Assembly (NCBI GenBank): GCA_045806525.1
Contig: JBJMJD010000009.1
Coordinates: forward strand, 6,626 to 70,625
Source: Gaiellales bacterium
GTDB lineage: Bacteria > Actinomycetota > Thermoleophilia > Gaiellales > JAICJC01
Length of the DNA stretch: 64,000 bases
Direction of reading: 5' to 3'
Shown: positions 40,532-57,713 of the stretch, in pieces
Layout: each line of letters starts with the position of its first letter
How positions within the stretch are numbered: the stretch's first letter is position 1
The notes under the pieces: generated by a model
What the model was told of the DNA's origin: nothing
What the model saw: only the letters and a program-made list of their open reading frames with translations
Databases searched by the model: none
Translations under genes and position numbers: made by a program

Positions 40532-40540
40532 TAAACGCGA

Positions 40541-40571: not shown

Positions 40572-40585
40572 CGGCGGTCATCGGG

Positions 40586-42151: not shown

Positions 42152-42195
42152 TTGTCCCTCCTTTGAGCATTGACCGGTATGGGCATCTGCCCGGG

Positions 42196-43716: not shown

Positions 43717-44322
43717 CTACGCGCCCTCCTGCAGCGCTTCCACCGCTGCCTGATATCCCTCCACGGCCTCTGCGTCGCGCCCGCTCATGATCAGCCGGCC
43801 GGTTGCGCCGAGCAGCGCCGCGTAGATCAGCTTCACCGGTGCTCGTTTCTCGGCCCGGTTGGCCGCCGTGGCGATGTAGGCCGCCGGGGTCGCCTCGATC
43901 AGGAACATCGTCTCGTCCTGCAGCAGCAGGTTCGCGCCGCCCATCCTGTTGATCAGCTGCGCCTGGTTGGGATGCACCCGCGTCACCAGCTCCGACGCCA
44001 CCACCTCCGGCCGCCTCGCGTCCGCCACCGTCAGCTTCAGCCGCTCCAGCACCGCCCGCGCCGCCTCCCGCACCGCAACCGGGTCGCGCCCGTGCAGCTC
44101 CAACGTCCCGTACTGCCGCTCCACCACCTGCAGCCCCGACCGCACGTCCGCGTTCTTCACCGCCGCGTTCACGAGCGAGAACACCTCGTTCGCCGGCGCC
44201 ACCTCCACGTACAGCTGCGCGAACCCCGCCGACGGCGGATCGCCCTGGCAGGTCTGCGCCACGTAGGCCGCCCACTGCGGCTGCATGGCGTCGATCTCGA
44301 CGAAGGCGCGGAGGTCGGCCAC
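43717..44322 (-). CDS. Divergent tandem-domain BMC shell protein (BMC-T-like)
   Basis: 201 aa, made of two roughly 100-aa halves. Each half aligns by eye to the in-window BMC-H core. Example: LIEATPAAYIATAANRAEKRAPVKL...GRLIMSGRDAEAVEGYQAAVEA against [25 protein letters not shown]...[21 protein letters not shown]. The first half reads LYVEVAPANEVFSLVNAAVKNADV...GTLELHGRDPVAVREAARAV. It is the last gene of the shell operon. Confidence 0.55.
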   Translation of the reverse strand: MADLRAFVEIDAMQPQWAAYVAQTCQGDPPSAGFAQLYVEVAPANEVFSLVNAAVKNADVRSGLQVVERQYGTLELHGRDPVAVREAARAVLERLKLTVADARRPEVVASELVTRVHPNQAQLINRMGGANLLLQDETMFLIEATPAAYIATAANRAEKRAPVKLIYAALLGATGRLIMSGRDAEAVEGYQAAVEALQEGA

Positions 44323-44324
44323 CT

Positions 44325-44570
44325 CTACCGGGACGGATCCACGATCGCGACCACCGCCGCGTCGGTCGGAACGCCGCGCGTCTGATCCGTCTCACGCGCC
44401 GCGCCGCCCATCGCGACCAGCACCATGTCGCCCTCTCCGGCGCCCACCAGATCCACCGCCACCAGCTCCCCGCCGCCCCCCACCGGGGTCACCGTCAGCA
44501 GGCTGAACCCGGTTAGCCCGGCCGCCTTCTGCGTCGCCACCGTGCTTCCCGTGACATGGCATCGCTGCAT
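44325..44570 (-). CDS. BMC vertex protein (BMC-P, EutN/CcmL family)
   Basis: 81 aa: VTGSTVATQKAAGLTGFSLLTVTPV...LVAVDLVGAGEGDMVLVAMGGAAR...DAAVVAIVD. This matches the EutN/CcmL pattern. Confidence 0.85.
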   Translation of the reverse strand: MQRCHVTGSTVATQKAAGLTGFSLLTVTPVGGGGELVAVDLVGAGEGDMVLVAMGGAARETDQTRGVPTDAAVVAIVDPSR

Positions 44571-44579
44571 CTCGTCCTC

Positions 44580-45056
44580 CTAGCTTTGCGGCCGCAGTCG
44601 CACGGCGCCGTCGAGGTCGTTCCAGGGAATGATCGCGTCCACCGCCGCCTGTATCCGGTTCAGCGCCATCAGCAGGTGCTCGATCACGACCGCGTACTCG
44701 CGCGACGTGTCCGGCCGCCACTCGGCCAGGATCGACGCCGCCCGACGCAGCAGCTGCACCGTCTCGGGCATCTCCCACTTCGCCGTCCGCGCCGCCGTCC
44801 GCTCCAGCAGCATCGCCGTCACCGAGCACAGCTCCGGCAGCCGCAGGTCGCCGTCCAGCGCCGCCTGCCGCACCACCTGCAGCTGCTCCCCGGCCCAGAA
44901 CAGGTCGAAGTTGCAGTACAGCACGCACGGCAGATTGCCCATCGGCGGCAGCGTGAACCGCCGCAGCGCCGCCACGTCCGGCGGCTCGCCGATCCAGCGG
45001 TCGACCGTGAACTCGCGCAGCTCCTCCACCAGCATCGCCGCCGACACGTAGGCCAT
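44580..45056 (-). CDS. Hypothetical protein (158 aa) embedded between shell genes
   Basis: ATG at 45056 shares one nt with the upstream stop (TGATG). The N-terminus MAYVSAAMLVEELREFTV looks like a short amphipathic helix. No family recognised. Confidence 0.45.
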   Translation of the reverse strand: MAYVSAAMLVEELREFTVDRWIGEPPDVAALRRFTLPPMGNLPCVLYCNFDLFWAGEQLQVVRQAALDGDLRLPELCSVTAMLLERTAARTAKWEMPETVQLLRRAASILAEWRPDTSREYAVVIEHLLMALNRIQAAVDAIIPWNDLDGAVRLRPQS

Positions 45057-45436
45057 CAGGCCAGCTCCATCCGCACCGGCAGCGATCCCGCCTCCAGGAT
45101 CTTGCGCCCGCACCGTGCCAGCCCATCCAGGTTGCTCCGCACGCGTGCCACATAGCTGACCTCGCCGAACGGCTGCGTTTCGCCGTAGAACAGGCACAGC
45201 GTCTGCCGACCCGGGTAGTAGCCGATGTCTCCCGCGACAACGTCGGTCTTGCCGTTCTCCTGCTCTGCGAAGAACGGCACCATGACGATCGTCTCCTCGC
45301 CCGCGAACTTGGCGTGCACCATCGTCGACTCGAACGGCAGGATCGAGCGGATATAGCCGCACACGCGCGGCGCATCGTCCACCAGCAGCTCGGCCTCGAT
45401 CACCTCGCCGTCGCAGAGGATGCGGATCGCCGGCAT
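45056..45436 (-). CDS. Small hypothetical protein, possibly cyclophilin-like fold (DUF3830-like, unverified)
   Basis: 126 aa: IRILCDGEVIEAELLVDDAPRVCGYIRSILPFESTMVHAKFAGEE...GDIGYYPGRQTLCLFYGE. From memory only, this pattern resembles cyclophilin-like DUF families. Confidence 0.4.
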   Translation of the reverse strand: MPAIRILCDGEVIEAELLVDDAPRVCGYIRSILPFESTMVHAKFAGEETIVMVPFFAEQENGKTDVVAGDIGYYPGRQTLCLFYGETQPFGEVSYVARVRSNLDGLARCGRKILEAGSLPVRMELA

Positions 45437-45438
45437 CC

Positions 45439-45735
45439 TCAGCGCTTCGCCGCGGCCGGTGCCACCGCCGCCGGCAGCACCTTCATCACGTCCTCGTGCG
45501 GCCGCGGGATCAGGTGCGCCGACACCAGCTCGCCGGTCTTCTTGGCCGCCGTCGCGCCGGCGTCGATCGCCGCCTTGACCGCACCCACGTCGCCACGCAC
45601 GGCAACGGTCACGTAGCCGCCGCCGATCGACTCGCGGCCAAGGATCTCGACGCTGGCCGCTTTCACCATCGCGTCCGCCGCTTCGATCGCGGCCACCAGC
45701 CCGCGCGTCTCGATCAGCCCCAGTGCTCCATCCAT
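45439..45735 (-). CDS. BMC hexamer shell protein (BMC-H, PduA/EutM type)
   Basis: 98 aa. [61 protein letters not shown] is near-consensus PF00936. Confidence 0.95.
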
Positions 45736-45749
45736 GTCTGCGTCCTCCT

Positions 45750-47546
45750 TTAGGACCCGTACCAGTCGAGGGTGTCAGTTCCGATGTTCAGGTGAATGTT
45801 CTTGGACTCCAGGTACTCGCTCAGCGACTCCAGCCCCAGGTCGTAGCCGGTGCCGCTCTCCTTGTATCCGCCGAACGGCGCCTCCGACGGGTAGACCCCG
45901 TACTGGTTGACCCAGATCGACCCGGCCTCCAGCCTATGCGCCACGCGGTGCGCGCGCCCGACGTCGCTCGTCCAGATCCCGGCCGCCAGCCCGTAGCGCA
46001 CGTCGTTCGCGATCCGCACCGCCTCATCCTCGCCGTCGAATGGCACGATCACCACCACCGGCCCGAAGATCTCCTCCTGCGCGATCCGCATGTCGTTTGA
46101 GCCCGCGAAGATCGTGGGCTCGATGAAGTTGCCGCCGGCCAGCTCCGGGTGCGACGGCCGCACGCCGCCGGCCACCACCGTCGCCCCCTCCGCCTTCCCG
46201 ATCTCGACGTACTCGTAGACGCGCTGGCACTGGCGCTCGTTGATCAGCGCACCCAGCTGAGTCGACCAGCGGTGCGGCATGCCGACCCGGATCCCGGACG
46301 CCTTGTCGGCGAACCGCCGCACGAACTCGTCGTAGACCGGCCGCTCGACCAGCACCCGCGACCCGGCCGAGCAGACCTCGCCCTGGGCCAGGTAGATGCC
46401 GAACACCGAGCCGATCACGGCCCGCTCCAGGTCGGCGTCGGCGAACACGATCGACGGCGACTTACCGCCCAGCTCCAGCGACACCCGCTTGATCGTGCCG
46501 GCCCCCGCCCGCATCACCGTGCGCCCGGTCACGGTCGACCCTGTGAACGCGATCTTGTCGACGCCGGGGTGCTCCGCCAGCGCCGCGCCCGCAGTCGCGC
46601 CCAGCCCCGGCACCACGTTCAACACTCCCGGCGGCAGCCCCGCCTCCAGCGCGATCCGGCCCAGCTCCAGGCACGTCAGCGGTGCCAGCTCGGGAGCCTT
46701 CAGCACGACCGTGTTACCGGCCGCCAGCGCCGCCGAGCCCTTGCGGCAGGCGATGTGCAGCGGAAAGTTCCAGGGGATGATCATGCCCACCACGCCCATC
46801 GGCTCCTTGCGCACGTAGTCGAGCGAGCTGGTCGGCATCGCCAGCACCCGCCCGTCGATCACGCGCACCAATCCCTGGTAGTAGCGCCACGGGTCCCAGC
46901 AGGCCGGCAGGTCGACCAGCGCCGCCTCGCGGATCGGCTTGCCGACGTCGTACGACTCGATCCGCGCCAGCCGGTCGCGGTCGGCCTCGATCAGCTCCGC
47001 TATCCGAAGCAGGATCCGCGACCGCCTCTCCGGCGCCATGTCGCGCCAGGCCGGCAGCGCGTCGCGCGCCGCGCGGACCGCCCGGTCGATGTCGTCGGGC
47101 CCGGCCGCCGCTACCTCCACGATCGTGCGGTTGGTGGCCGGATCGATCGTGGGCACGGTCTCACCGCCGGCGGCTTCGCGCCATTCGCCGTTGATCAGCA
47201 GCTTCGTCTGCAGCGAGCCGGTGTCGGGCAGGCCCTCGATCGGCGCACCGCCGGGCGCCGGCGGCCGGGAGCCGCCCTGCACCCGCCGCCCGGCGGCCGG
47301 CTGTTCGCGCACCAGCCCCGCCAATGCCGGCGCCGGCAAGCCGCCCGCGGTTACAGGAAGCGCCGCCACCACGTCGCCCGCGGGCTGGGGCTGGGACGTC
47401 GCGCCACCCTCGACCAGCCGCACGCCGTGCATCCGGGCCGCGTCCAGCGCCGCGTCGGTCAGCGTCGTGTGCTCGCGCACCATCAGCTCCCGCTCTCCCT
47501 GCTCGGCCAACGCGCGGATGTCGTCGGCGGTGACGAACTCCTTCAC
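45750..47546 (-). CDS. NAD(P)-dependent aldehyde dehydrogenase (hydrolytic type) with about 115-aa N-terminal extension
   Basis: GTG at 47546 overlaps the upstream stop (GTGA); 598 aa. The core starts near residue 115 ([11 protein letters not shown]). Hallmarks [33 protein letters not shown]. The extension is a roughly 46-aa module ([45 protein letters not shown]) plus a Pro/Gly/Ala linker. The remainder of track ORF 45750..49091 is a shadow. Confidence 0.9.
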
Positions 47547-48838
47547 CGCTGGATCCGCCCCACCAGAGGCACCCCGGTGATCGCCTCGCACTCGAGCGTC
47601 AGCGCGCGCAGATCCTCGGGCTCCAGGTTGTGCACGTCCGATTTTCCGCAGGCCCGCGCCAGCATCTGGATCTCCATGGTCATGGCGTTCAGGAAGTTCA
47701 CCACACGCTCGGTGGCCGAGTCTACGTCGAGCCGCGCCATCAGTTCCGGGTCCTGTGTGGTGACCCCGACAGGGCAGAGGCCGGTGTGGCACTCGCGGCA
47801 GGTGCCCGGCGCCACGCCGAGCCTGGCGTAGTCCTCCTCGTAGAGCGGCGCGTTGCAGTTGAGTGCGACCATCGCGGCGGTGGCGATGTAGACGGCGTCG
47901 GCGCCCAGCGCCAGCGCCTTGGCGGCATCGACGCCGTTGCGGATGCCGCCGGCTATCACGATCTGGACATCGCCGTAGGCGCCGATGTCGATCAGCGCCT
48001 CGCGGGCCTCGACCACCGCCGCCAGCGTGGGCACGCCGGTGTGGTCGAACAGCAGCAGCGGTGAGGCCGCCGACGCGCCCTCGAGCCCGTCGATCACGAC
48101 CACGTCGGCGCCGGCCTTGACCGCCAGCCGCACGTCGTCGAACACCCGGCAGGCGCCCAGCTTGACCCAGATCGGCACCCTGTGGCGGGTGGTCTCGCGC
48201 AGCTCCTCGATCTTCAGGCGCAGGTCGTCGGCGCCCAGGAAGTCGGGATGCCGCACCGGCGAGCGCTGGTCGACGCCGGGCGGCAGGTCGCGCATGCCGG
48301 CCACCTCGTCGGACACCTTGAAGCCCAGCAGCACGCCGCCGGTGCCGGGCTTGGCGCCCTGGCCGACCACGATCTCGACCGCATCCGCCTCCGCCATGTG
48401 GTGTGGGTTGTTGCCGTAGTGGCTGGGCGTCACCTGGTACACGAGCGTCTTCGACGCCGCCCGCTCGCGCGGGTGCATGCCGCCGTCGCCGGTGGTGGTG
48501 GAAATGCCAACCTGCGACGCCGCCCGGCCGAGCGCCTCCTTTGCATTCGCCGAAAGCGCTCCGAAGCTCATGCCCGAGATCGCGATCGGCGTCTCCAGCA
48601 CAACCGGGTTCGCGGCCCTCGTTCCCAGTGTGGTGCGGGTCTGGCAACGCTCGCGGTAGCCCTCCAGCGGCACTCGTGACAGCGTGCACGGGATGAAGGT
48701 GAGGTCGTCGAAGTTGGGCACCCGGCGGGTGGTCGAGAAGGCGCCCATCACGTACCGCCCGAGCTCGGCCTTCTGGCGGATGTCGGCCAGCGTCTCCTGC
48801 GACCAGACGTGGCTGGGACGGGACGGGTGCTCGATCAC
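47543..48838 (-). CDS. Glutamate-synthase-type FMN subunit (GltB domain 2 / N-methylglutamate synthase subunit C-like)
   Basis: GTG at 48838 overlaps the upstream stop (GTGA); 431 aa. Motifs LEGYRERCQTRTTLG, PIAISGMSFGALSANAKEALGRAA, TTTGDGGMHPRER, GQGAKPGTGG, IAGGIRNG. Confidence 0.85.
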   Translation of the reverse strand: MIEHPSRPSHVWSQETLADIRQKAELGRYVMGAFSTTRRVPNFDDLTFIPCTLSRVPLEGYRERCQTRTTLGTRAANPVVLETPIAISGMSFGALSANAKEALGRAASQVGISTTTGDGGMHPRERAASKTLVYQVTPSHYGNNPHHMAEADAVEIVVGQGAKPGTGGVLLGFKVSDEVAGMRDLPPGVDQRSPVRHPDFLGADDLRLKIEELRETTRHRVPIWVKLGACRVFDDVRLAVKAGADVVVIDGLEGASAASPLLLFDHTGVPTLAAVVEAREALIDIGAYGDVQIVIAGGIRNGVDAAKALALGADAVYIATAAMVALNCNAPLYEEDYARLGVAPGTCRECHTGLCPVGVTTQDPELMARLDVDSATERVVNFLNAMTMEIQMLARACGKSDVHNLEPEDLRALTLECEAITGVPLVGRIQR

Positions 48839-49545
48839 AGCGCGTCCCTCCAGATCGAGAACTCCTTCTTGTCGTAGCGCCACAGCTTCCCGGCCGAGCG
48901 CACCTTCTGCCACTCGCCGGCAGGCGCGAGGCCGTGACTACCGCAGAGGTCGGCCAGCCAGGCCAGCTCGTCGGCGGACGGTGGCTCGCAAACCGTGTCT
49001 GAGCCCAGCTCGGCGATGCGGCCACCGCAGAACAGCTCACCCTCGTACATCGAGTCGCCGAACCCGGGCCCGGCGTCGCCGCACACCACAAGCCGCGTGC
49101 GCTGGTTCATGAACCCCGACATGTACCCGGTGGATCCGCCGATCACCAGCGTGCCGCCCTTGCCGGCGATCGCCGACCGCGCGCCCGCGTCGCCCTTGAC
49201 GACCACCAGCCCGCCGCGCATCGAGGCGCCGGTGGAGCTGCCGCTATTTCCGCCCACGACGATGCTGCCGTCCATCATGTCGGCGCCCAGCGACCAGCCT
49301 GCGTTGCCGTCAACGGCAACGTCCAGCCCGTCGGACAGGCCGCCGCAGAAGTAGCCGACGTCGCCGCGGAACCGGACGGCCGCGCCGGGGTGGTCAAGGA
49401 AGCCCACCGCCAGGCTGTGCCGAGATCCCGGGTGCAGTACGTCCACCGTTCCGGCTCCGTCGTGCAGCAGCTGCCGTAGGCGGTCGTTGATCTGGCGCGT
49501 GCTGAGGCCCTGCGCGTCCAGCGTGGCCGGCGCTAGCGTGTCCAT
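48835..49545 (-). CDS. GXGXG-motif protein (GltB domain 3 / N-methylglutamate synthase subunit B-like)
   Basis: 236 aa. Beta-helix repeats VDGNAGWSLGADMMDGSIVVGGNSGSSTGASMRGGLVVVKGDAGARSAIAGKGGTLVIGG. Confidence 0.85.
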   Translation of the reverse strand: MDTLAPATLDAQGLSTRQINDRLRQLLHDGAGTVDVLHPGSRHSLAVGFLDHPGAAVRFRGDVGYFCGGLSDGLDVAVDGNAGWSLGADMMDGSIVVGGNSGSSTGASMRGGLVVVKGDAGARSAIAGKGGTLVIGGSTGYMSGFMNQRTRLVVCGDAGPGFGDSMYEGELFCGGRIAELGSDTVCEPPSADELAWLADLCGSHGLAPAGEWQKVRSAGKLWRYDKKEFSIWRDAL

Positions 49546-50450
49546 GCCCGCGCCTCGCCGCCCGCCAGCTCGTAGGTGTCGAAGTCGGCGCGGTCGCCGA
49601 ACGCCTCGGCCAGGGCGATGCCTTCGCTGACGACGGCCACCCAGTCGTCGGTCTCGGCCACCAAACAGGGCTTCGTGGAGAAGCGGTCGCGCGCGACGCC
49701 GAAGCCCTCGGCGGTCGACACCAGATAGGTGAAGGATCCATCTAGGTCGTCGATCGAGTCGCGCACAGCATCGTCCAGCGGCACGCCGGCCGCCATCCGG
49801 TCGGCCAGGTACACCGCGACGAACTCGGTGTCGTTGCCGGTCTGGAAACGGTGGCCGCGCATCTCGAACAGGCGCCGGTTCTTGTAGTAGTTGGTGACGT
49901 GGCCGTTGTGGACGACGGTCACGTCTGGGAACGGTCGCGCCCAGAACGGGTGCGAATGGTTCACGTCAACCCGCGACTCGGTCGCCATTCGGGCGTGACC
50001 GATCGCGTGGCTGTAGCTCGTTCCCAGCACGCCGAACCGCTCCGCCAGCTCGCGGGCGTCGGACGTGTGCTTGAGCAGCTCCAGCGATGTGCCGACCGAG
50101 AACACCCTCACGCCGGGTGCGCTGCGCTCGATCGCATCGGCCAGCGCCCCGATGTCACCGTCACCGCCGTTTCGCGCCAGCCCCAGCCGCCAGTAGCCGT
50201 CGCGGAACTGCTGGTCGGAGAGCTCGAACCCGGCCTCCGAGACGCCGTCGGACACCGCCGCGCGCGTGGCCTCACCGCCGGCCTCGCCGGCCCAGGCCGA
50301 AGCCACCAGGTCGCCCTGGAAGGGTGCGCCGTAGAGCGACAGCCCGGTCGAGTCCGGCCCGCGGCCGCGCAGCGCGGCAAGCATCGCCGTCAGCGTGGCG
50401 GCGACATCGACGCCGTCACGCTTTGCAAGGAATCCGGCGATGCCGCACAT
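49533..50450 (-). CDS. Class-II (Ntn) glutamine amidotransferase (GltB domain 1 / N-methylglutamate synthase subunit A-like)
   Basis: 305 aa, starting MCGIAGFL with nucleophile Cys2. Also RGPDSTG and HARMATES...HPF. Confidence 0.85.
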   Translation of the reverse strand: MCGIAGFLAKRDGVDVAATLTAMLAALRGRGPDSTGLSLYGAPFQGDLVASAWAGEAGGEATRAAVSDGVSEAGFELSDQQFRDGYWRLGLARNGGDGDIGALADAIERSAPGVRVFSVGTSLELLKHTSDARELAERFGVLGTSYSHAIGHARMATESRVDVNHSHPFWARPFPDVTVVHNGHVTNYYKNRRLFEMRGHRFQTGNDTEFVAVYLADRMAAGVPLDDAVRDSIDDLDGSFTYLVSTAEGFGVARDRFSTKPCLVAETDDWVAVVSEGIALAEAFGDRADFDTYELAGGEARAWTR

Positions 50451-50486
50451 GGATGCGACCCTACGCGCTCGGCGGCCGGTGCGTGA

Positions 50487-50501
50487 TGTGCACGATGCAC
50501 A
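50487..50501. promoter_or_regulatory. Inverted repeat TGTGCA-CGA-TGCACA in the 60-nt gap upstream of the amidotransferase gene
   Basis: A 6-bp perfect inverted repeat. It shares the octamer TGTGCACG with the repeat at 55520-55542. It could alternatively be a weak hairpin. Confidence 0.3.
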
Positions 50502-50510
50502 CCCTGCCGC

Positions 50511-51998
50511 TCACCGGGCCAGGTCGGCGAAGGCCGGCGCCAGCGCGTCGAACAGCAGCCGGTAGCGGCGGTAGCCCTGCTCGTAGGCGGCCGCAGCATC
50601 AGGGTCGGGATGGTGCTGCTCGGACGCCAGACGGCACATCGCCGCGGCCGCGGCCGGTACGTCCGCGTGCAACTCGCCGCCCGCGGCTGCCAGCATCGCG
50701 GCGCCACGGGAGGTCGTCTCGACGTCCTCGCTGTATCCGACCGGCAGCCCCGTCACGTCGGCGCGCATCTGACGCACCAGGGCCGAGCGCGCGCCGCCTG
50801 CCACGCAGACCACGCGCTGGCAGCCGAGCCCGGCTGCGGTGATGGCCTCGACGACGTCGCGCAGCGCGTAGGCCGAGCCCTCGAGCAGCGCCCGCACGAG
50901 GTGTCCGCGCCCGTGCGCGGGCGTCAGCCCGTACCAGGCGCCACGGGCTTCCGCCTCCCAGCGAGGCGCCATGGCGCCGCCCATCCAGGGCAGGAACACG
51001 AGCCCTTCGCTGGCCGCCGGCACCGCCTCGGCCGCCCGGTTGAGAGCCTCGTAGTCGGCACCGCCGCCCAGCTCGTCGCGGAACCAGCGGTAGTTGGCGC
51101 CGCTCGCCCAGCCCGGGTTCTCGAGCAGCCAGCGGCCGGGTGCGGCGTGGGGATGGCACTCGGCCACGCGACCGGCGTCGCGCAGCGGCCGGTCGCTGAC
51201 CGCACACACGGGCTCCGCTGTGCCGAGCACGTCGCAGACGGCGCCAGGCTCGGCCAGGCCGGCGCCCAGCGTGGCCGCCATCTCGTCGCCGCACCCACAG
51301 ATCACGAGCGCCTTCTCGCCGAGCCCGGTGGCGTCGGCGAACCCGGCGCTGACAGTGCCGAGCACCGCGTCGGCGGACACGACCGGCGGCAGCAACTCGG
51401 CGTCGATGCCGAACGCATCCAGCAGCGTCGTGTCCCAGCTGCCGGTGTCCGGATCGAGCAGCATGGTGGAGGACGCATTCGACCGGTCGACCGCGTCGGC
51501 TCCGCAGGCAACGCGCACCATGTACGAGCCGGGAAGCAGCGCCCGTGCCGTCCGCGCGTAGTCGTCGGGACGCTCCTGCGCGACCCAGGCCAGCTTCGCC
51601 GCCACATGCGACCCGTCCAGGTTGCAGCCCGACCGCCGGTACCACTCGTCGGCGTCGACGCGCGCCTCGGCCTGCCGGCAGAGCGGGTCGGCGCGGCGGT
51701 CCATCCAGATGATCGCGGGGCCGACCGGCTGCGCGTTGCGGTCGACGCAGACCAGCCCGTCCAGCTGCGAGCCGAACGAGATCGCCCGCACCCGGCGCAG
51801 GTTCACCCGTGCCGCCAGGTCGCGGAACCCGTTCACCAGCGCCGCGCGCCAGTCACGCGGGTCCTGCTCCACCCAGCCCGGACGCGGGTAGCGGAGCGGG
51901 TGCGGCTGGTATGTGGTGGCCAGCCGTTCGCCGGCCGCATCGAACACCGACAGGCATGACCCCTGCGAGCCGACGTCGATGCCGCAGACCAGCTCCAC
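50511..51998 (-). CDS. FGGY-family carbohydrate/polyol kinase
   Basis: 495 aa. Motifs VCGIDVGSQGS, GWVEQDP, PAIIWMDRRA, and the C-terminal FGGY half GGGARS. Confidence 0.85.
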   Translation of the reverse strand: MELVCGIDVGSQGSCLSVFDAAGERLATTYQPHPLRYPRPGWVEQDPRDWRAALVNGFRDLAARVNLRRVRAISFGSQLDGLVCVDRNAQPVGPAIIWMDRRADPLCRQAEARVDADEWYRRSGCNLDGSHVAAKLAWVAQERPDDYARTARALLPGSYMVRVACGADAVDRSNASSTMLLDPDTGSWDTTLLDAFGIDAELLPPVVSADAVLGTVSAGFADATGLGEKALVICGCGDEMAATLGAGLAEPGAVCDVLGTAEPVCAVSDRPLRDAGRVAECHPHAAPGRWLLENPGWASGANYRWFRDELGGGADYEALNRAAEAVPAASEGLVFLPWMGGAMAPRWEAEARGAWYGLTPAHGRGHLVRALLEGSAYALRDVVEAITAAGLGCQRVVCVAGGARSALVRQMRADVTGLPVGYSEDVETTSRGAAMLAAAGGELHADVPAAAAAMCRLASEQHHPDPDAAAAYEQGYRRYRLLFDALAPAFADLAR

Positions 51999-52001
51999 GC
52001 G

Positions 52002-53054
52002 TCAGCCGTTCGGGGCGACGACGACCTTCAGCGCCTCACCCGAGCGGATGCGCTGAAAGGCCGCCGGCGTGTCGTCCAGCGAGACAACATCCGACACGAC
52101 CCCGCGGATGTTGTGCGTGTTGCGGCGCAGCATCTCCAGCGCCTGCACCTGGTCGCGGTGCCGGGAGGCGTAGCTGCCGTGCACCGCCACCTCGCGGTAG
52201 TGCAACACGTTGGAGGGGAAGGCGATCGTGGTCGTGCCCTTGGGCAGTCCGCCGAAGTACAGCACCCGGCCCCGCGGCGCCGCCATCTCCATGGCCTGCT
52301 CCTGCGCCTGCACGTTCGAGCACGCCACGATCACGCGGTCGGCTCCGTCGCCGGTCTCGTCCTTGATGAACTGCACGGGGTCGATGCCGGTGGTGTCGAC
52401 GTACCGGACGTTCGCGTCGTTCAGCACTCCGCGGGCCAGATCCAGCCGGCCGGCCGAGGTCTCGAGCAGGTAGACGAGATCGGCGCCCTGCGCCAGCGCC
52501 AGCGCCACATGCGCGGTGCCGACCGGGCCGGCCCCGATCACGACCACGTGCTGCTCGAGCCCGATGTCGAGGTCCTTGTGGCCGCAGATCGCATCCGAGA
52601 GCGGGTCGGCGAACGTGGCGTGCACCGGGTCCAGGCCATCCGGGAGCACGAACACGTTCTTCAGCGCCACCTGCGGTACCGCGACCAGCTCGGTGTAGGC
52701 GCCCTGGTAGTCGAAGCCCATCAGGCCGCCGTTCTGGCAGAGGTGCTCGTTGCCGCCGCGGCAGAGGCTGCAGTGGCCACAGTAGAGCGTCGAGATCACG
52801 TGCACGGTGTCGCCGACTGCGGCCGCCAGGTCGGCGCCCGCGTCCGGTCCGATGTCGAGCACCTCACCGCAGATCTCGTGTCCCAGCACCGCGCCAGGCT
52901 GGATCCGGCGGTCGCCGTTGAAGAAGGTGCGCACGTCGGTGCCGCAGATCCCGCAGGCGGTCACGCGCAGCAGGCAGCCGTCGGCCGGGCAGGTCGCATC
53001 CGCGACCTCGCCCAGGTGCATCTCGCCCGGCCCGTCCCATATCGCCGCCCTCAT
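52002..53054 (-). CDS. Zinc-dependent alcohol/polyol dehydrogenase (MDR family)
   Basis: 350 aa. Catalytic Zn motifs CGICGTDV and GHEICGEV, structural Zn Cys cluster CGHCSLCRGGNEHLC, and Rossmann VVVIGAGPVG. Confidence 0.85.
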   Translation of the reverse strand: MRAAIWDGPGEMHLGEVADATCPADGCLLRVTACGICGTDVRTFFNGDRRIQPGAVLGHEICGEVLDIGPDAGADLAAAVGDTVHVISTLYCGHCSLCRGGNEHLCQNGGLMGFDYQGAYTELVAVPQVALKNVFVLPDGLDPVHATFADPLSDAICGHKDLDIGLEQHVVVIGAGPVGTAHVALALAQGADLVYLLETSAGRLDLARGVLNDANVRYVDTTGIDPVQFIKDETGDGADRVIVACSNVQAQEQAMEMAAPRGRVLYFGGLPKGTTTIAFPSNVLHYREVAVHGSYASRHRDQVQALEMLRRNTHNIRGVVSDVVSLDDTPAAFQRIRSGEALKVVVAPNG

Positions 53055-53103
53055 GAGCCGCTGATCGTATCGTGAAACCGCTCGCCCGGGCAGGCCGCGT
53101 GGG

Positions 53104-53784
53104 TCACCCGGCGTGGGCGGCTCCGCGCGCGGCGCCCAGGATCGCCGTCAGCTGGGCGGCCAGGTCGCCGCCCGGCACGAACTCGCCGTTGAGCGCGGCC
53201 GTCCCGACCGTGAAGGCCCACACGCCAAGCGCCGACAGCTCCTCGATCCGCGCCACCGAGTCGACCGAGCCGGCGCAGATCAGCGGCAGGCTGGTGGTCT
53301 CGGAAACCCGACGCACCAGCTCGGCGACGTCGCCGTCGTAGCGGTATGCCAGCAGGTTGATCCCGTCCACGCCCTGCGCCTCGACGCGGCGGGCGTCCTC
53401 GCAGATCTCGTCGATCGTTCCCCGCAGCAGGCAGGGATGTCCGACGATGCGGCCGATGTAGGGGAAGTAGCGCATCCCCGACCCCTCGATGATGCGCTGC
53501 ACATCCTGCACCTGCGTTCCGCCGATCAGGTAGTCGGGGTGCACCCGCATCGCCGCCTCGGCTGAGCGCAGCTCGTCCTCGAGCGTGGCCGACACCACCT
53601 CCAGGTGGGTGGTCGCCCCGGCCGCGCGGGCCGAGTCCAGGAACGCCGCGAGCTCCGCCTCGGGCAGGCCGATGTCCTTGCAACCGACGTGGCTGACACC
53701 CACCGTTGTCACGTCTGCGAACACCTCCTGGGCGTCCGTGAGCGTCTTGTCGTCGCGGGTCAGCATGAAGATGAACTCAGGCAT
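53104..53784 (-). CDS. TIM-barrel-like protein of unknown function
   Basis: ATG at 53784 lies 5 nt after GAGGAG; 226 aa. EFIFMLTRDD... and ...PLICAGSVDSVARIEELSALGVWAFTVGTAAL show a distant, from-memory resemblance to ribulose-phosphate-binding barrels of the GlpP/NanE type. Confidence 0.4.
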   Translation of the reverse strand: MPEFIFMLTRDDKTLTDAQEVFADVTTVGVSHVGCKDIGLPEAELAAFLDSARAAGATTHLEVVSATLEDELRSAEAAMRVHPDYLIGGTQVQDVQRIIEGSGMRYFPYIGRIVGHPCLLRGTIDEICEDARRVEAQGVDGINLLAYRYDGDVAELVRRVSETTSLPLICAGSVDSVARIEELSALGVWAFTVGTAALNGEFVPGGDLAAQLTAILGAARGAAHAG

Positions 53785-53798
53785 GTCGTCTCCTCGGG

Positions 53799-55502
53799 TC
53801 AGGGTTGCACGGTGCTCCGGAACCGCACCAGCCGGACCGCAAGGCCCAGCTCGAACCAGCTGCCCGGCTCCCGCACGTCGCGGTCGATGATCTCTCCGAT
53901 CCGGCGCAGGCGCTGGCGGAGGGTGTTGCGGTGGATGAACAGCGCCTCGGCCGAGCGACGGGCGTTGCCATGCTGCTCGAGGTAGACCTCGAGCGTCCGG
54001 AACAGCTGGCTGCCACGGCGTGCATCCGTCTCCTGCAGCCGCACCAGCGCCAGCTCCAGCGGGTCGGGGTCGCCTTCGCGGGAGATCGTCCACAGGTGCC
54101 GCTGTGCGCCCAGCGCCTGGTAGCTCCGCACGCCGCTGCCCCCGGCGCGGGCAATCGTGGCGGCGATCCGGGCCTGACGCACGGCGCTCTGCGGATCGTC
54201 GCCGGCGGGCTCGCTGATGCCGGCTCCGGCGCCCGGGGGCAGCGACCGGGCCAGCAGCTGCTCGAGCCGCGGCCGCCAGCTCTGGCTGGCGATCGGCACC
54301 AGCGCCGACAGCTCATGCGCGCGCGCGTCGATCACGGTCTGTGGGAAGCTGCCCGCGAGCTGCTCGCCGAGCGCGCCCCATAGCCGGTCGGGGTCGCCTC
54401 CCGCCGCGGCCTCCGCCAGCACCACCACATGGGGCCGGTCGAGCGGCACCGACTCACCCGCTCGCAGCGCCTCGAACAGCTGCCGTGCCCGCGTCCGCTG
54501 GGCGGCGGCGTCGCGCCGTCGATCCTCCTCGAGAGCCAGCGCGGCATGGTTGGCTATGGTCGCGATCAGCTCGGTGTTGTCGGTCGAGAGAACGCGTCGC
54601 TCCTGCGAGAAACAGAGCAGCACGCCGGTCGGCCGTCCCTCCAGCCGCACCGCAGCGGCGAACAGGGAGCGCGCACGCGGGTGCAGCGCCAGCTCGGGCG
54701 CGTCGTCCAGCGCGATGCTGGCCGGCCCGCCGCCCAGCAGCCGGGCCCAGGCGCGGGTCGCTGCGATCGGCTCACCGCTCAGCCGGGCCTGGTCGCTTGA
54801 TGCCCAGGCCTCCACCAGCAGCCGATCACGCGCCGCGTCGAACCGCAGCAGGGCCGCCAGCGAGCCGTCCAGCAGCTCCATGGTCGCGATCGCGAGACGG
54901 TGCATGGTCTCGCGTGGGCTGGCCGAGGTCATCCGGTGCGAGAGGTCGGCCAGCCGACGGAACACGTCCACGCTGCGCAGCGCCCGCTCGTGCAGCTGCG
55001 CGTTCTCGACCGCGCCGGCGACCAGGCTGGCGATCGTCTCCAACATCGTCACATCGGAGTCGCTGAACTCGTGCGGCGCCTCGGTGTGCAGGGTCAGCAC
55101 TCCCAGCAGCTGGCCGGAACGGCCCACCACCGGCACCGTCGCCACCGACTGGAAGCGCTCGTCATTGAGGTCGGGCACGTACCGGTAGCGCGCATCCTCG
55201 AGTGGGCGCTCGGTGATGATCCCGGCCTGTCGGGTGAGCGCAGTCCAGCCGGTAAGGCCCTCGCCCATGCCCAGCGAAAAGCGCCCGATCCACTCGGTGT
55301 AGCCGTCGATCGCGCCGCGCACCACCAGCCGCTCCTGCTCGGAGTCCCACAGGTAGACGAGGGCGCCCTGGCAGCGGGTCAGCTCGGCGCAGACCGCTAT
55401 CGCCTCCTCCAGCACGCGGTCGAGGTCGAGGCTGGAGTTGACGCGCGAGGCCAGCGCCGAGATCGCCTCGAGATCGCGCGCGTGCTCCTCGACCCGCACC
55501 AT
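53799..55502 (-). CDS. GAF-domain / PucR-family transcriptional regulator
   Basis: ATG at 55502; 567 aa. N-terminal GAF (LDLDRVLEEAIAVCAELT...GEGLTGW) and a second GAF-like region. C-terminal PucR HTH LFRTLEVYLEQHGNARRSAEALFIHRNTLRQRLRRIGEI. The upstream part of track ORF 53799..56321 is a shadow. Confidence 0.8.
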   Translation of the reverse strand: MVRVEEHARDLEAISALASRVNSSLDLDRVLEEAIAVCAELTRCQGALVYLWDSEQERLVVRGAIDGYTEWIGRFSLGMGEGLTGWTALTRQAGIITERPLEDARYRYVPDLNDERFQSVATVPVVGRSGQLLGVLTLHTEAPHEFSDSDVTMLETIASLVAGAVENAQLHERALRSVDVFRRLADLSHRMTSASPRETMHRLAIATMELLDGSLAALLRFDAARDRLLVEAWASSDQARLSGEPIAATRAWARLLGGGPASIALDDAPELALHPRARSLFAAAVRLEGRPTGVLLCFSQERRVLSTDNTELIATIANHAALALEEDRRRDAAAQRTRARQLFEALRAGESVPLDRPHVVVLAEAAAGGDPDRLWGALGEQLAGSFPQTVIDARAHELSALVPIASQSWRPRLEQLLARSLPPGAGAGISEPAGDDPQSAVRQARIAATIARAGGSGVRSYQALGAQRHLWTISREGDPDPLELALVRLQETDARRGSQLFRTLEVYLEQHGNARRSAEALFIHRNTLRQRLRRIGEIIDRDVREPGSWFELGLAVRLVRFRSTVQP

Positions 55503-55519
55503 GGCGCGAGCATATCGCG

Positions 55520-55542
55520 CCTGTGTGCACGCTGAACACAGG
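55520..55542. promoter_or_regulatory. Inverted repeat CCTGTGT-N9-ACACAGG in the divergent promoter region of the BMC locus
   Basis: A 7-bp perfect inverted repeat containing TGTGCACG. It is adjacent to a second palindrome, GCGCGA-N5-TCGCGC, at 55504-55520. It lies between the regulator start (55502) and the divergent gene start (55575). Confidence 0.3.
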
Positions 55543-55574
55543 CGAATCGGGGGCGATTCCGATAGTCTCGCCAC

Positions 55575-56378
55575 GTGAGCAGCACGACCGTCGTCACGGA
55601 CTGGGCCGAGCGCACCGCCGAGCTGCACCGCGAGCTGATGCCGCAGAAGGACAACCTGTGCGGCGCGTTCTGGGGCGCGCTGGTTCTGACCGCGGCCGGC
55701 GTGCACGGGATTGACCAGGACCTGGTCGCGCAGGAGTCGGGCACGCTGCTGCCGGAGGGCGGCGAGCCACCGCCGCTTGCAGGCGTCGAGTCGCGGGTGG
55801 ACTACCGCCTTGAGCTGCCGCTGGCGCCTAGGCCTCAGTCCGGCACGCCGGGGCGGGGGCTGGCGATCGCGATCGAGCGCCTGTCGGCCGGCCGCCTGGC
55901 GGCGGTGCCGGTGGCCGGTCCCTGGACGGCCGAGACGGTGGCCGAACTGCTCTCGCTGGACCGGCAGATGCCGCTGATCGCAAACGTCGACACCGGCGCG
56001 CTGTGGGGAGCGTCTGCTGACCGCAAGCAGGTGCAGCGCCACCTCGACACCGGAGCGGACGACGGCCCCGCGGCCGACTGGTCTGTTGGCCACTTCGTCA
56101 ACCCGGTGGCAGTTCAGCGCGGGCGGGGTGCCGCCATCGTCACTGTCCGCGACACGTACCCCGCGATTGCCGGAGGCGTCCACCTGCAGCCGGCGTCGCG
56201 CCTTGCCGCGGCGCTTCGCCGTGACGACGGGCGCGAGGGCGGCGTGCTCTGCGTGTGCGATGCTGGGCGAGCCGCCGGCCTCGAGCGCGACCTGGCCGCG
56301 GGCGGGTTGCAGGTTCGCCATTGGGACAACGGAACCCCCGAACGCCTGTCAAGGCATGGGCGGGGAAGGAGGGGATAG
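55575..56378 (+). CDS. Hypothetical protein with papain-like Cys/His/Asp pattern (phytochelatin-synthase-like?, unverified)
   Basis: 267 aa. Gln24-x4-Cys29 (PQKDNLCGAFWGALVL), His173 (DWSVGHFVNPV) and Asp193 (VTVRDTY). The His-Asp spacing is close to that of gamma-glutamylcysteine peptidase/PCS-type enzymes. The stop abuts the GS-like start. Confidence 0.4.
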   Translation: MSSTTVVTDWAERTAELHRELMPQKDNLCGAFWGALVLTAAGVHGIDQDLVAQESGTLLPEGGEPPPLAGVESRVDYRLELPLAPRPQSGTPGRGLAIAIERLSAGRLAAVPVAGPWTAETVAELLSLDRQMPLIANVDTGALWGASADRKQVQRHLDTGADDGPAADWSVGHFVNPVAVQRGRGAAIVTVRDTYPAIAGGVHLQPASRLAAALRRDDGREGGVLCVCDAGRAAGLERDLAAGGLQVRHWDNGTPERLSRHGRGRRG

Positions 56379-57713
56379 GTGGCCACTGACACCACGATCG
56401 GCGCCGCTCAGGTGCTCGACGGTTGGCGCGCCCAGGGGATCCGCTTCGTGCGGTTCGAGCTGCCCGACATGCACGGCACCAGCCGAGCCAAGATGGTGCC
56501 GATCGAGCGGGCCTACGGCTACGCCGAGTCGGGGCTGAACATGTACGGCGGCGTTGCCGTCCTGGACAGCAGGTCTGACGTCGTGGGTGGAACGCTCTAT
56601 CACGAGGAGGTCGCATACGGCGACCAGCTGCTGTTGCCCGATCTGGAGACGGCCGCGGTGGTACCCTGGCGCGAGGCCACGGCGCGCTGGATCTGTGATT
56701 CCACCTGGGCCGACGGCACCCCGCTCGAGGCGTTGCCGCGGCGGGTCTGGCGCACACAGCTGGAGCGCGCCCGCGCGCTCGGCTACGAGCCCCTGATCGG
56801 GTACGAGCCGGAGTTCTACCTGCTGACCGCCGACCAGGAGCTGCTGTTCGAGGGCTACCACATCTTCAACGTCACGCGGAACACGTACGTGCCCTTCATC
56901 CAGGAGCTGGTCGAGCAGCTGAACGCGTATGGGCTCGAGGTGATCACGGCCAACTGCGAGTACGCCGGCTCGCAGTGGGAGCTGCCCTGCCTGCCGCAGC
57001 GCGGCATGGCCGGTCCCGACCGCTGCTTCTCGTTCAAGAACGCGGTCAAGGAGCTGGCCCACCTGCACGGCTACACCGCCACGTTCATGAGCAAGCCGTT
57101 CGCCGACTCGGCTGGATCGGGGCTGCACACCCACGTGTCTCTGCTGAACGTCGCCGACGGCGGCAACGCGTTCGGGGATGCGTCAGACGAGGCCGGTATC
57201 TCGGCCGCGTGCCGCAGCTTCATCGCCGGCAACGTGCGCCACGCCGCTTCCACCTATGCGCTGCTGGCTCCGACGGTGAACTGCATGAAGCGCCGCCGCA
57301 CGCACACGTTCAGCCCCACCAACGTGTCCTGGGGGCTGGAGGATCGCTCGGCGCTGATCCGGATAAAGGGCGGCACCACCGAGTCGAGGCACATCGAGCA
57401 CCGTGCTCCCACCGGCCTGGCCAACCCATACCTGGTGGGGGCGGCGATTCTGGCGGCCGGGCTGAACGGCATCGAGGACGGCCTCGAGCTGGAGCCGGCC
57501 GCTCATCCGCCGGCCGAGGAGGACGAGTCGCGGGCGAAGCTGCCGACATCGGTGCGCGAGTCGCTGGAGGCGCTGGAGGCGGACGAGCGGATTGCGGGCG
57601 CCCTCGGCCAGGACTTCGTCACCGCCTACGGCGTGATGCGACGCCACGAGCTGTCCCGCTTCGACGATCACGTTACCGACTGGGAACGCAACGAGTATGT
57701 CGAGATCTACTAG
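56379..57713 (+). CDS. Glutamine-synthetase-like ligase (gamma-glutamyl-amine synthetase candidate; GmaS/PuuA/GlnA-like family)
   Basis: GTG at 56379 follows GGAAGGAGGGG; 444 aa. Has a GS beta-grasp N-terminus (IRFVRFELPDMHGTSRAKMVP). Catalytic-domain motifs YEPEFYL, KPFADSAGSGLHTHVSL, NVSWGLEDRSALIRI. Confidence 0.85.
   Translation: MATDTTIGAAQVLDGWRAQGIRFVRFELPDMHGTSRAKMVPIERAYGYAESGLNMYGGVAVLDSRSDVVGGTLYHEEVAYGDQLLLPDLETAAVVPWREATARWICDSTWADGTPLEALPRRVWRTQLERARALGYEPLIGYEPEFYLLTADQELLFEGYHIFNVTRNTYVPFIQELVEQLNAYGLEVITANCEYAGSQWELPCLPQRGMAGPDRCFSFKNAVKELAHLHGYTATFMSKPFADSAGSGLHTHVSLLNVADGGNAFGDASDEAGISAACRSFIAGNVRHAASTYALLAPTVNCMKRRRTHTFSPTNVSWGLEDRSALIRIKGGTTESRHIEHRAPTGLANPYLVGAAILAAGLNGIEDGLELEPAAHPPAEEDESRAKLPTSVRESLEALEADERIAGALGQDFVTAYGVMRRHELSRFDDHVTDWERNEYVEIY

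Follow-up and report, generated by a model that had tools for sequence, protein, structure and literature searches.

A conserved bacterial microcompartment locus with a minimal shell and a predicted non-acylating aldehyde dehydrogenase in uncultured Gaiellales

A 64,000-nucleotide stretch of DNA from a Gaiellales bacterium (GenBank assembly GCA_045806525.1, contig JBJMJD010000009.1, positions 6,626 to 70,625 of the forward strand; hereafter the window, with a G+C content of approximately 70%) carries a real and conserved bacterial microcompartment (BMC) gene cluster, in which three shell proteins are encoded in one run of genes with an aldehyde dehydrogenase (ALDH). Judged from its sequence, this ALDH is of the classical non-acylating, acid-forming type and not of the CoA-acylating PduP/EutE type. 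The component lists, trees and descriptions in the text-searchable parts of the published catalogues set the locus apart as a metabolosome type outside those catalogues, that is, as a new type within the known BMC systems.

Results

An earlier note on this DNA had read three of the genes as a minimal shell set consisting of a single BMC-H, a single BMC-P and a single trimer-type tile, and this reading was borne out. The candidates for BMC-H and for BMC-P passed the hidden Markov model check with PF00936 and PF03319, respectively (scores are given in Table 1), and their genes lie approximately 0.9 kb apart, which is the clustering of these two families that identifies a BMC locus. Furthermore, comparison of BMC-H with the PDB returned matches of the PduA/EutM class (E 1e-34 to 1e-30). 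The third candidate, described earlier as BMC-T-like, matched PF00936 with only 26 bits in the Pfam copy used; however, its homologues carry PF27545 (CsoS1D_N), and a profile of its family matched the solved BMC-Tdp structures (5v76, 5l39, CcmP and CsoS1D) over the full length with E values of 5e-54 to 1e-45, the proteins matched being those of HO, RMM MSM0275, CcmP and CsoS1D. Because of PF27545 on the homologues and these full-length matches, the candidate is identified as a double-stacking permuted trimer, which sharpens the earlier assignment to BMC-Tdp. BMC-H is present in one copy, as are BMC-P and BMC-Tdp, and no second shell gene was found in the window.

Thirteen co-directional genes run on the minus strand from 55502 to 43717, and they were recovered at the positions claimed for them by the listing of open reading frames (ORFs), by analysis of G+C at third codon positions and by translation. 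The ORF calls also reproduced the tight junctions described earlier, with overlaps of 1, 4, 4 and 13 nt and gaps of 2-14 nt; larger gaps occur solely between the genes for the glutamine amidotransferase-type subunit (GATase) and the FGGY-family kinase (60 nt), and between those for the Zn-dependent alcohol dehydrogenase (Zn-ADH) and a barrel-like protein (49 nt). Divergent from the GAF/PucR regulator gene, and thus on the plus strand, are the genes for a DUF6885 protein and a glutamine synthetase (GS)-like ligase. The same arrangement recurs in 39 species-level genomes, and it is therefore not due to chance.

These relatives were found in a scan that used a BMC-Tdp alignment and covered a single genome for each GTDB species, and the anatomy of the resulting 77 loci was examined by tblastn of the window proteins against all loci, together with precomputed Pfam contexts. 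Thirty-nine loci belong to metagenome-assembled genomes (MAGs) of Gaiellales, Thermoleophilia or unclassified Actinomycetes, with BMC-Tdp identities of 71-98%, and 38 belong to Alpha- and Gammaproteobacteria, with identities of 39-44%. BMC-Tdp has 244 homologues; those listed are at least 70% identical and come mostly from metagenome contigs, and the few that bear a taxon name are Gaiellales or Thermoleophilia MAGs. Among the scanned genomes, the locus type is restricted to uncultured soil Gaiellales/Thermoleophilia.

A module of six genes, encoding the ALDH, BMC-H, a cyclophilin-like protein (unk1), a second accessory protein (unk2), BMC-P and BMC-Tdp, is invariant in all 39 loci of this type as far as the contigs reach, and the genes around it define four variants among the 31 informative loci (eight further loci are too truncated to classify). 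In variant A, that of the window, the barrel protein, Zn-ADH, FGGY kinase and a trio of GATase, GXGXG and FMN subunits are encoded upstream of the module (6 loci). Variant B (13 loci) is headed by the GAF/PucR regulator gene and has a gene of the OCD/mu-crystallin family with the trio, and a divergent GS-like gene; variant C (3 loci) has the trio alone upstream and the barrel protein downstream. Variant D (9 loci) has, without the trio, a Zn-ADH, a DeoC aldolase (PF01791), an FGGY kinase and a second Zn-ADH, and divergent DUF6885 and GS-like genes. The trio accordingly lies beside the ALDH gene in 22 of the 31 informative loci, where the genes for the FMN subunit and the ALDH usually overlap by 4 nt, and the synteny of enzyme and shell genes expected from the window holds in these loci only, since the trio is replaced in the other nine. 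Because those nine loci keep the ALDH-shell module, the core of the system consists of the ALDH, the shell and the two accessory proteins, and the genes for aldehyde supply are modular. Altogether, the locus composition had been described correctly in structure; however, its invariant core is narrower, and its enzyme set more modular, than had been assumed.

The proposal of the earlier note that the ALDH is non-acylating and extended at its N-terminus was supported both by NCBIfam models and by the PF00171 match, which spans residues 122-584. The best models for the ALDH are those of betaine-aldehyde, aminobutyraldehyde, PuuC and semialdehyde dehydrogenases, all of them scoring below the equivalog cut-offs; the scores against the non-acylating betaine-aldehyde, aminobutyraldehyde and PuuC models are 430-535 bits (485 bits for aminobutyraldehyde dehydrogenase and 434 bits for PuuC). 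The catalytic motifs ELGGKS and GEVCSAG are retained. By comparison, the PduP-like ALDHs of the RMM-like loci discussed below score approximately 90 bits to PF00171, as against 572 bits for the ALDH of the window; the ALDHs of the MIC1 loci, also PduP-like, are at most 25% identical to it, and in a sequence search the ALDH of the RMM1 locus gave no match to it. The start of the ALDH gene overlaps the stop of the FMN-subunit gene by 4 nt.

The N-terminal extension of the ALDH comprises approximately 120 residues in two parts, both of which are conserved in all four locus variants. The first part, a domain of about 48 residues, has no match in Pfam and only a marginal match in the PDB, to the swivel domain of pyruvate phosphate dikinase (PPDK; E 0.028); among 1.84 billion representative proteins it gave 39 matches, mostly short fragments resembling the N-termini of the same ALDH family. 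The domain was also observed in stand-alone small proteins of 113-138 residues, which have a conserved KPKGCQHGP segment and a C-terminal helix, and as two to three tandem copies within one protein; these forms outside the ALDH (P0385, P0398, P0388, P0391, P0394 and P0399) are without a Pfam family. PPDK is encoded in the MIC1 loci of a Methylibium plasmid (L084, 3481-6015) and a Rhodococcus plasmid (L085, 17520-22638), the latter of which has an additional stand-alone 'PEP-utilizing enzyme' mobile domain. The resemblance to the swivel domain and the presence of PPDK in MIC1 could be a coincidence, or could hint at a shared shell-associated domain.

The second part of the extension is a linker rich in Pro, Ala and Gly that holds one to three copies per protein of a ten-residue motif (Table 1). 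When the window and the related loci that cover this region were translated in all six frames, the motif appeared in the ALDH linker alone. Copies in relatives were located at 7537 and 7687 of one locus (L001) and at 6483, 6588 and 6699 of another (L022), the copy number differing from one to three between species and the linker length varying along with it. These variable repeats resemble the multivalent scaffold repeats of carboxysome proteins. We infer from its conservation that the extension may be an encapsulation signal. Among the other enzymes, the three subunits of the trio align end to end with homologues from outside BMC loci and have no N- or C-terminal extensions, the matches of the FGGY kinase and the GS-like ligase to their NCBIfam models run from end to end, and no extension of the Zn-ADH was apparent by eye.

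A Pfam scan of approximately 45 window genes revealed none of the known signature enzymes (EutBC, PduCDE, glycyl-radical enzyme, or class-III aminotransferase/RMM kinase plus phospho-lyase), no phosphotransacylase (PduL, PF06130; Pta, PF01515) and no PduP-type ALDH, confirming absences that had already been noted. Within their text-searchable parts, the 2014 and 2021 catalogues hold no matching locus type, a comparison that the earlier note had left for later work: PF01645, PF01493, PF12903 and PF00370 have no entry in the searchable component table, and Thermoleophilia taxa are not among the listed entries of the shell-protein trees, of which the BMC-Tdp tree is complete. A literature search, with subscription papers outside it, likewise found no published link of microcompartments with N-methylglutamate, glutamate synthase, Thermoleophilia or Gaiellales.

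The closest shell found outside Thermoleophilia is that of MIC1 (Axen 2014; Sutter 2021), for example on plasmid RPME01 of Methylibium petroleiphilum PM1 (Tdp 50%, BMC-H 78% and BMC-P 46% identical to the window proteins) and plasmid pRB98 of Rhodococcus oxybenzonivorans S2-17 (44%, 69% and 45%, respectively). Similar to the window, MIC1 has a Zn-ADH and a large GAF-containing regulator and is without a phosphotransacylase or a recognized signature enzyme; however, its ALDH is a divergent PduP-like enzyme (24-25% identical to the window ALDH over part of the length), and it differs in having EutJ, a malate/lactate dehydrogenase with an N-terminal extension, HAD/SurE and PPDK. MIC1 is without the trio, the GS-like ligase, DUF6885, the FGGY kinase, the cyclophilin-like protein and unk2. 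Unlike the window, each of the two MIC1 loci studied (L084 and L085) contains a second BMC-domain gene, and what these loci share with the window is limited to the shell proteins and a distant Zn-ADH (28-29%).

In its published description (Sutter 2021, Supplementary Data 2), by which alone it was compared, MIC2 resembles the window in having an ALDH, a GS-family protein (pfam00120) and a minimal H/P/Tdp shell, and it has a few actinobacterial members. It is defined there, however, by a lactate/malate dehydrogenase (pfam02866) with an N-terminal extension of about 70 residues and by a 6-phosphogluconate-dehydrogenase-like protein, its ALDH is without an encapsulation peptide, and the trio is not part of the description. 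Neither of the two defining families is among the 15 genes of the locus, and identity with MIC2 on the basis of GS, ALDH and shell is thereby ruled out. Identity with SPU3 was also considered, as an unclassified actinobacterial MAG is entered in the catalogue as SPU3 and variant D has DeoC, and it was ruled out by signature enzymes and shell composition: SPU3 has a BMC-P triplet, BMC-Ts, pfam02502 and a Tdp of the CcmP clade.

RMM1 and RMM-like loci (Mycobacterium and plasmid pRHL2 of Rhodococcus jostii RHA1, with similar loci in Roseovarius and Stappia) have Tdp proteins 41-44% identical to that of the window. As in the window, the actinobacterial examples combine an H+P+Tdp shell with an ALDH adjoining the shell genes and with an amino-acid/ethanolamine-type permease nearby, and their substrate is an amine or amino alcohol, as proposed for the window. 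In contrast, RMM uses a phosphotransferase, a phospho-lyase of the class-III aminotransferase type and a PduP-like ALDH, none of which is in the window, and the gene order and accessory proteins differ. The proteobacterial loci with 39-44% Tdp identity (Roseovarius, Stappia and an Olavius symbiont) contain a class-III aminotransferase, a PduP-like ALDH and a fused B12 dehydratase; they are RMM-like and were ruled out as members of the same type.

Some features of these proteobacterial loci were noted in passing. In marine Alpha- and Gammaproteobacteria (L043-L080) the set consists of a class-III aminotransferase, a PduP-like ALDH, Tdp, an unknown protein of 146 residues, BMC-P and BMC-H. In Roseovarius aestuarii (L054, 12988-15276) this set is followed by an isochorismatase gene and by a gene for a 762-residue protein in which the large subunit of B12 diol dehydratase is fused to the medium one, so that aminotransferase and dehydratase signature enzymes stand together in one locus. 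The Gamma 3 endosymbiont of Olavius algarvensis (L076, 15276-19482) has a trio, with an FMN subunit 58% identical to that of the window, and a DAO-family FAD oxidoreductase at approximately 3.6 kb from its RMM-like BMC locus; AMP-binding and RidA genes on the opposite strand separate this trio from the shell genes, and it is probably unrelated to the microcompartment, although it might be another tie of this chemistry to BMCs.

Both accessory proteins, which the earlier note had called small unknowns, are encoded in every related locus whose contig covers that stretch. This label still fits unk2, which is without a Pfam match, but not unk1, a cyclophilin-like/DUF3830 protein whose relatives in the PDB (TM1367 and 3kop) are uncharacterized structural-genomics proteins. 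There are 168 homologues of unk2, 72-99% identical among those listed, and the few that bear a taxon name are from Gaiellales/Thermoleophilia. An AlphaFold2 model of unk2 (predicted local distance difference test [pLDDT] score 88) has seven helices, and a Foldseek search of the PDB with this model gave matches above noise to no proteins other than McbB and KslB, two bacterial Pictet-Spenglerases (TMq 0.63-0.77, E ~1e-2, 16-20% identity, with about half of those enzymes covered). Pictet-Spenglerases condense amines with aldehydes or 2-oxo acids via iminium ions. The Pictet-Spenglerase-like predicted fold of unk2 is a lead and not an assignment.

Table 1. Features of the microcompartment locus and its flanks (positions of the window)
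Feature	Position	Strand	Basis
Amino-acid permease, SDR, HAD phosphatase and ADI/DDAH-like genes, 3' of the shell genes	37935..42535	.	Pfam; kept in relatives
BMC-Tdp, 201 aa, CsoS1D/CcmP/MSM0275 class, tandem permuted BMC domains	43717..44322	-	PF00936 26 bits, C-terminal half
BMC-P, 81 aa	44325..44570	-	PF03319 82 bits, full length
unk2, 158 aa, predicted all-helical accessory protein	44580..45056	-	No Pfam match; AlphaFold2 and Foldseek
unk1, 126 aa, cyclophilin-like/DUF3830 accessory protein	45056..45436	-	PF12903 55 bits, PF04126 46 bits
BMC-H, 98 aa, PRPH interface motif	45439..45735	-	PF00936 103 bits
ALDH, 598 aa, predicted NAD(P)-dependent, non-acylating	45750..47546	-	PF00171 572 bits
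ALDH catalytic domain, aa 122-584	45795-47183	-	PF00171
ALDH linker motif [10 protein letters not shown], candidate shell-/scaffold-binding peptide	47313..47342	-	Six-frame motif search
ALDH N-terminal ~48-aa domain [48 protein letters not shown], candidate encapsulation domain	47403..47546	-	Conserved in all four variants
FMN glutamate-synthase-type subunit, MgsC/GlxD-like, 431 aa	47543..48838	-	PF01645 322 bits
GXGXG subunit, MgsB-like, 236 aa	48835..49545	-	PF01493 37 bits
Class-II (Ntn) glutamine-amidotransferase-type subunit, MgsA-like, 305 aa	49533..50450	-	PF13522, PF13537
FGGY-family sugar/polyol kinase, 495 aa	50511..51998	-	PF00370, PF02782
Zn-dependent medium-chain alcohol dehydrogenase, 350 aa	52002..53054	-	PF08240, PF00107
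Phosphate-binding (beta/alpha)8-barrel-like protein, 226 aa	53104..53784	-	Weak His_biosynth and HisF/PriA matches
GAF-GAF-PucR(HTH_30) transcription regulator, 567 aa	53799..55502	-	Pfam
DUF6885 protein, 267 aa, predicted papain-like cysteine hydrolase	55575..56378	+	PF21819 224 bits
GS-like ligase, 444 aa, gamma-glutamyl-amine synthetase candidate	56379..57713	+	PF00120 279 bits; start is the base after the DUF6885 stop
LutA/LutB/LutC-like lactate-utilization genes, possible extension of the divergent operon	57908..60553	+	CCG, LUD_dom, Fer4, LutB_C

Several flanking genes are shared with relatives. An orthologue of the GAF/PucR regulator with 50-55% identity heads the variant-B loci. The order DUF6885-GS-LutABC is kept in a relative, where the gap between the GS-like and LutA genes is 19 nt, and variant A continues beyond the GS-like gene with LutABC, a TPR protein, a C26 amidase and a SIS protein. 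In the window, the latter two (61822-63598, minus strand) are a PuuD-like class-I amidotransferase/peptidase C26 gene (61822-62532) and a double-SIS-domain gene of the FrlB/GlmS isomerase-domain type, located approximately 4 kb past the GS-like gene and kept in the relative L088; a C26 amidase is encoded near variant-B loci as well. The SIS protein would fit deglycation or isomerization of an amino-sugar phosphate.

On the other side, the permease, SDR, HAD and ADI/DDAH-like set 3' of the shell genes is found in variants A and C with 62-96% identity, and variant D has permease, SDR, ADI and M20 peptidase genes. The permease gene of the window (40586-~42100, minus strand) is split by an in-frame TGA at 41558-41560 (...LVVF*HGGNN...), across which the orthologues in related loci align with 79-96% identity; the split may reflect a pseudogene, recoding at this site or an error of MAG assembly. 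Directly after the BMC-Tdp gene (42877-43599, minus strand) is a gene for an IS200-like Y1 transposase-domain protein with a C-terminal segment resembling HTH/sigma-70 region 4. Seven related species keep this gene in the corresponding place (43-94% identity), and it therefore looks like a resident, possibly domesticated gene and not like a recent insertion. Farther away, at ~12268-26225, is a sugar/amino-sugar cluster with no evident connection to the BMC locus, encoding an ABC transporter ATPase and permease, two BadF/BcrA-type ATPases, a GH4 glycosidase, a DegT-family aminotransferase, a ROK regulator, a GFO/IDH/MocA oxidoreductase and an EamA transporter.

Discussion

In the reading that we favor, and that we hold to be about evenly balanced between right and wrong, the locus encodes a new type of metabolosome that oxidizes an aldehyde to the free acid, the aldehyde in this case probably arising from gamma-glutamyl/N-alkylglutamate chemistry on amines. 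The N-terminal extension would recruit the ALDH into the shell, where an aldehyde delivered by the neighboring enzymes would be oxidized to a free carboxylic acid; with a free acid as product, a CoA-acylating ALDH and a phosphotransacylase would not be needed. The source of the aldehyde in this window would be an amine or amino alcohol, which the GS-like ligase could gamma-glutamylate in an ATP-dependent reaction, and the trio could transfer an alkylamine to the skeleton of 2-oxoglutarate, which would yield an N-alkylglutamate in the way known for MgsABC-GmaS and methylamine. Oxidative C-N cleavage would then free the aldehyde and regenerate glutamate, and the SbnB-like dehydrogenase of the OCD family in the commonest variant (B) is a possible enzyme for this step. 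DUF6885 and the nearby C26 amidase might hydrolyze gamma-glutamyl amides, with glutamate being recycled, the Zn-ADH might recycle NADH, and the FGGY kinase and barrel protein might feed or drain a phosphorylated polyol branch. Finally, with LutABC adjacent, the product might be a 2-hydroxy acid, for instance lactate.

The trio is, in its Pfam content, of the three-subunit architecture of N-methylglutamate synthase (class-II GATase, GXGXG and FMN domain), and its arrangement with the GS-like ligase matches the mgsABC-gmaS architecture of the N-methylglutamate pathway (PMC6237917). With its counterpart in rhizobial GATase-GXGXG-FMN-glnT (type III GS) operons, the FMN subunit shares 57-59% identity. 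The amidotransferase subunit begins MCGIAGF, with the nucleophile Cys at position 2, and the Ntn nucleophile is therefore kept. In the N-methylglutamate genes of Methylobacterium extorquens and the rhizobial operons, which have the same three subunits and a GS-like ligase, the ligase is encoded in the same operon; in the window, however, the ligase gene is divergent, and MgdABCD, the N-methylglutamate dehydrogenase with subunits of the DAO/sarcosine-oxidase families, was not found in the locus or among the scanned window genes. The location of the trio in one operon with an ALDH and shell genes is a feature of the window, and the literature search revealed no such arrangement elsewhere.

These likenesses could point to methylamine itself as the substrate, with formaldehyde from N-methylglutamate being confined and then oxidized to formate by the encapsulated ALDH. 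Formaldehyde is a toxic, diffusible aldehyde of the kind thought to be confined by microcompartments, and the trio with a type III GS-like ligase would be explained by the mgsABC-gmaS architecture; however, we give a methylamine organelle only a slight chance. Beyond the missing MgdABCD-type dehydrogenase, the ALDH is of the aminoaldehyde/betaine-aldehyde class and not among the known formaldehyde dehydrogenases, the GS-like ligase scores 259 bits against the type III GS model TIGR03105, whose cut-off is 470 bits, and no C1-assimilation or tetrahydrofolate-linked genes were seen nearby.

The GS-like ligase also scores 229 bits, again below the cut-off, against gamma-glutamylputrescine synthetase, and its gene is coupled to that of DUF6885. 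An AlphaFold2 model of DUF6885 (pLDDT 94) matched papain-family, primitive phytochelatin-synthase and C39 folds in Foldseek (E 2e-4 to 1e-2, with modest TM scores of 0.3-0.46), and Q24, C29, H173 and D193 are invariant across 42 sequences. In view of the papain-like predicted fold and the invariant Gln, Cys, His and Asp, DUF6885 is probably a cysteine amidase or transferase. DUF6885 was also observed beside a divergent DeoC-FGGY-ZnADH operon in a region without shell genes and without a GS-like gene (L083, 3523-8885), and the kinase/aldolase/DUF6885 module can therefore occur apart from the microcompartment.

Ligase, alcohol dehydrogenase, PuuC-like ALDH and candidate gamma-glutamyl amidases are likewise found in the PuuABCD pathway of Escherichia coli for putrescine and in the GlnA4/SCO1611/SCO1612/SCO1615 pathway of Streptomyces for ethanolamine, the latter being a cytosolic gamma-glutamylation route of ligase, dehydrogenase, ALDH and amidase (PMC9397018). 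A pathway of this kind might be housed in the compartment, such that an amine (an amino alcohol or diamine) stays gamma-glutamylated throughout: a dehydrogenase would form a gamma-glutamyl-aminoaldehyde, the ALDH would oxidize it, and DUF6885 or the C26 amidase would release glutamate and an amino acid. The ligase and ALDH scores given above, the coupling of the papain-like hydrolase gene to the ligase gene, the PuuD-type C26 amidase nearby both here and in variant B, and the Streptomyces precedent would all suit this alternative. We nonetheless consider it quite unlikely, given that the scores are all below the equivalog cut-offs, that bulky gamma-glutamyl intermediates would have to pass through the shell pores, and that the trio, the gene set most tightly coupled to the ALDH, would be left without a role. 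The PuuABCD and GlnA4 pathways are, moreover, cytosolic and have neither shell proteins nor the trio, and the window has both.

The remaining upstream enzymes bear on a third alternative. The best NCBIfam model for the FGGY kinase is xylulokinase (327 bits, below the cut-off), and that for the Zn-ADH, which is present in the window and absent from variants B and C, is threonine 3-dehydrogenase (164 bits, far below the cut-off). For the protein called TIM-barrel-like in the earlier note, which has orthologues in variants A and C, the barrel resemblance stood, albeit on weak matches of the HisA/HisF type alone (His_biosynth, E 2e-3; HisF/PriA in the PDB, E 8e-5 to 2e-4). With such enzymes, the organelle might instead cleave sugar or polyol phosphates, as in PVM- or SPU-like systems: the ADH and FGGY kinase would yield a phosphorylated ketose, which an aldolase (in variant D DeoC, in the window perhaps the barrel protein) would split, giving triose phosphate plus an aldehyde, for example lactaldehyde; this aldehyde would be turned into lactate by the encapsulated ALDH and the lactate into pyruvate by LutABC, and the GS-like ligase and trio would be nitrogen-handling neighbors outside the pathway.

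The main support for this alternative, which is the foremost of those weighed, is variant D, in which DeoC (PF01791, the SPU signature family), an FGGY kinase and two Zn-ADHs are encoded directly upstream of the ALDH without the trio. In addition, fuculokinase and rhamnulokinase are members of the FGGY family, LutABC is encoded behind the GS-like gene both in the window and in a relative, and the DUF6885/DeoC/FGGY/ADH module occurs also without shell genes. However, the 16 loci of variants B and C have no kinase or aldolase, yet their trio is translationally coupled to the ALDH, and the barrel protein of the window is weakly HisA/HisF-like and not a recognized aldolase. The GS-like ligase and DUF6885 accompany variant D too, and amide chemistry therefore stays linked to the locus there. 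Altogether, we judge polyol-phosphate cleavage to be unlikely.

Returning to the free-acid metabolosome fed by amine chemistry, the amine part of the proposal in the earlier note remains plausible in the light of the GS-like ligase, the mgsABC-like trio, the papain-like and C26 hydrolases and the SbnB-like dehydrogenase of variant B. It should be noted, however, that a number of observations weigh against this reading, and that the proposed mechanism, although reasonable, is supported only in part. In addition to the missing MgdABCD, no other enzyme that releases an aldehyde from an N-alkylglutamate was identified in the window, and a candidate targeting element is found solely on the ALDH among the enzymes of the locus. 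The variant-B protein of the OCD family has SbnB as its best NCBIfam model (247 bits, below the cut-off). SbnB, an NAD-dependent dehydrogenase whose substrate is an N-alkylglutamate, cuts on the glutamate side, however, which would return the amine and not an aldehyde. Furthermore, the trio is absent from 9 of the 31 informative loci, so that N-alkylglutamate chemistry is not obligatory for the organelle, and the roles of the FGGY kinase, Zn-ADH and barrel protein are not accounted for by an amine route. Every NCBIfam enzyme assignment is below its equivalog cut-off, an Rfam scan of the whole window gave no riboswitch or other RNA clue to the inducer, and among the scanned genomes no cultured organism carries the actinobacterial type, all carriers being uncultured MAGs.

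A bolder version, which we think would probably fail, holds that this is the first microcompartment built on N-alkylglutamate chemistry, with unk1 and unk2 as new lumen enzymes or scaffolds and with the linker repeats as a multivalent encapsulation signal. If so, the shell would enclose both the release and the oxidation of an aldehyde, which might be formaldehyde, acetaldehyde or lactaldehyde, the Pictet-Spenglerase-like unk2 would handle an iminium/aldehyde step, and the swappable upstream sets would amount to one aldehyde-oxidizing shell cassette that is re-used for different substrates in the abundant soil Gaiellales.

BMCs have been catalogued into about 68 types, and to our knowledge nearly all metabolosomes use a CoA-acylating ALDH. 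The locus would add to these a type with an acid-forming ALDH, a pair of conserved accessory proteins and a targeting extension of a new kind, and would tie BMCs to glutamate-mediated amine chemistry, a link that the literature search did not reveal. One ALDH-shell cassette behind four enzyme sets would represent natural cargo swapping, which is of interest to shell engineers, and the ~48-residue N-terminal domain and the ten-residue linker motif are candidate orthogonal encapsulation tags. Finally, because Gaiellales/Thermoleophilia are known almost entirely from metagenomes, the locus offers a concrete hypothesis about the physiology of these organisms.

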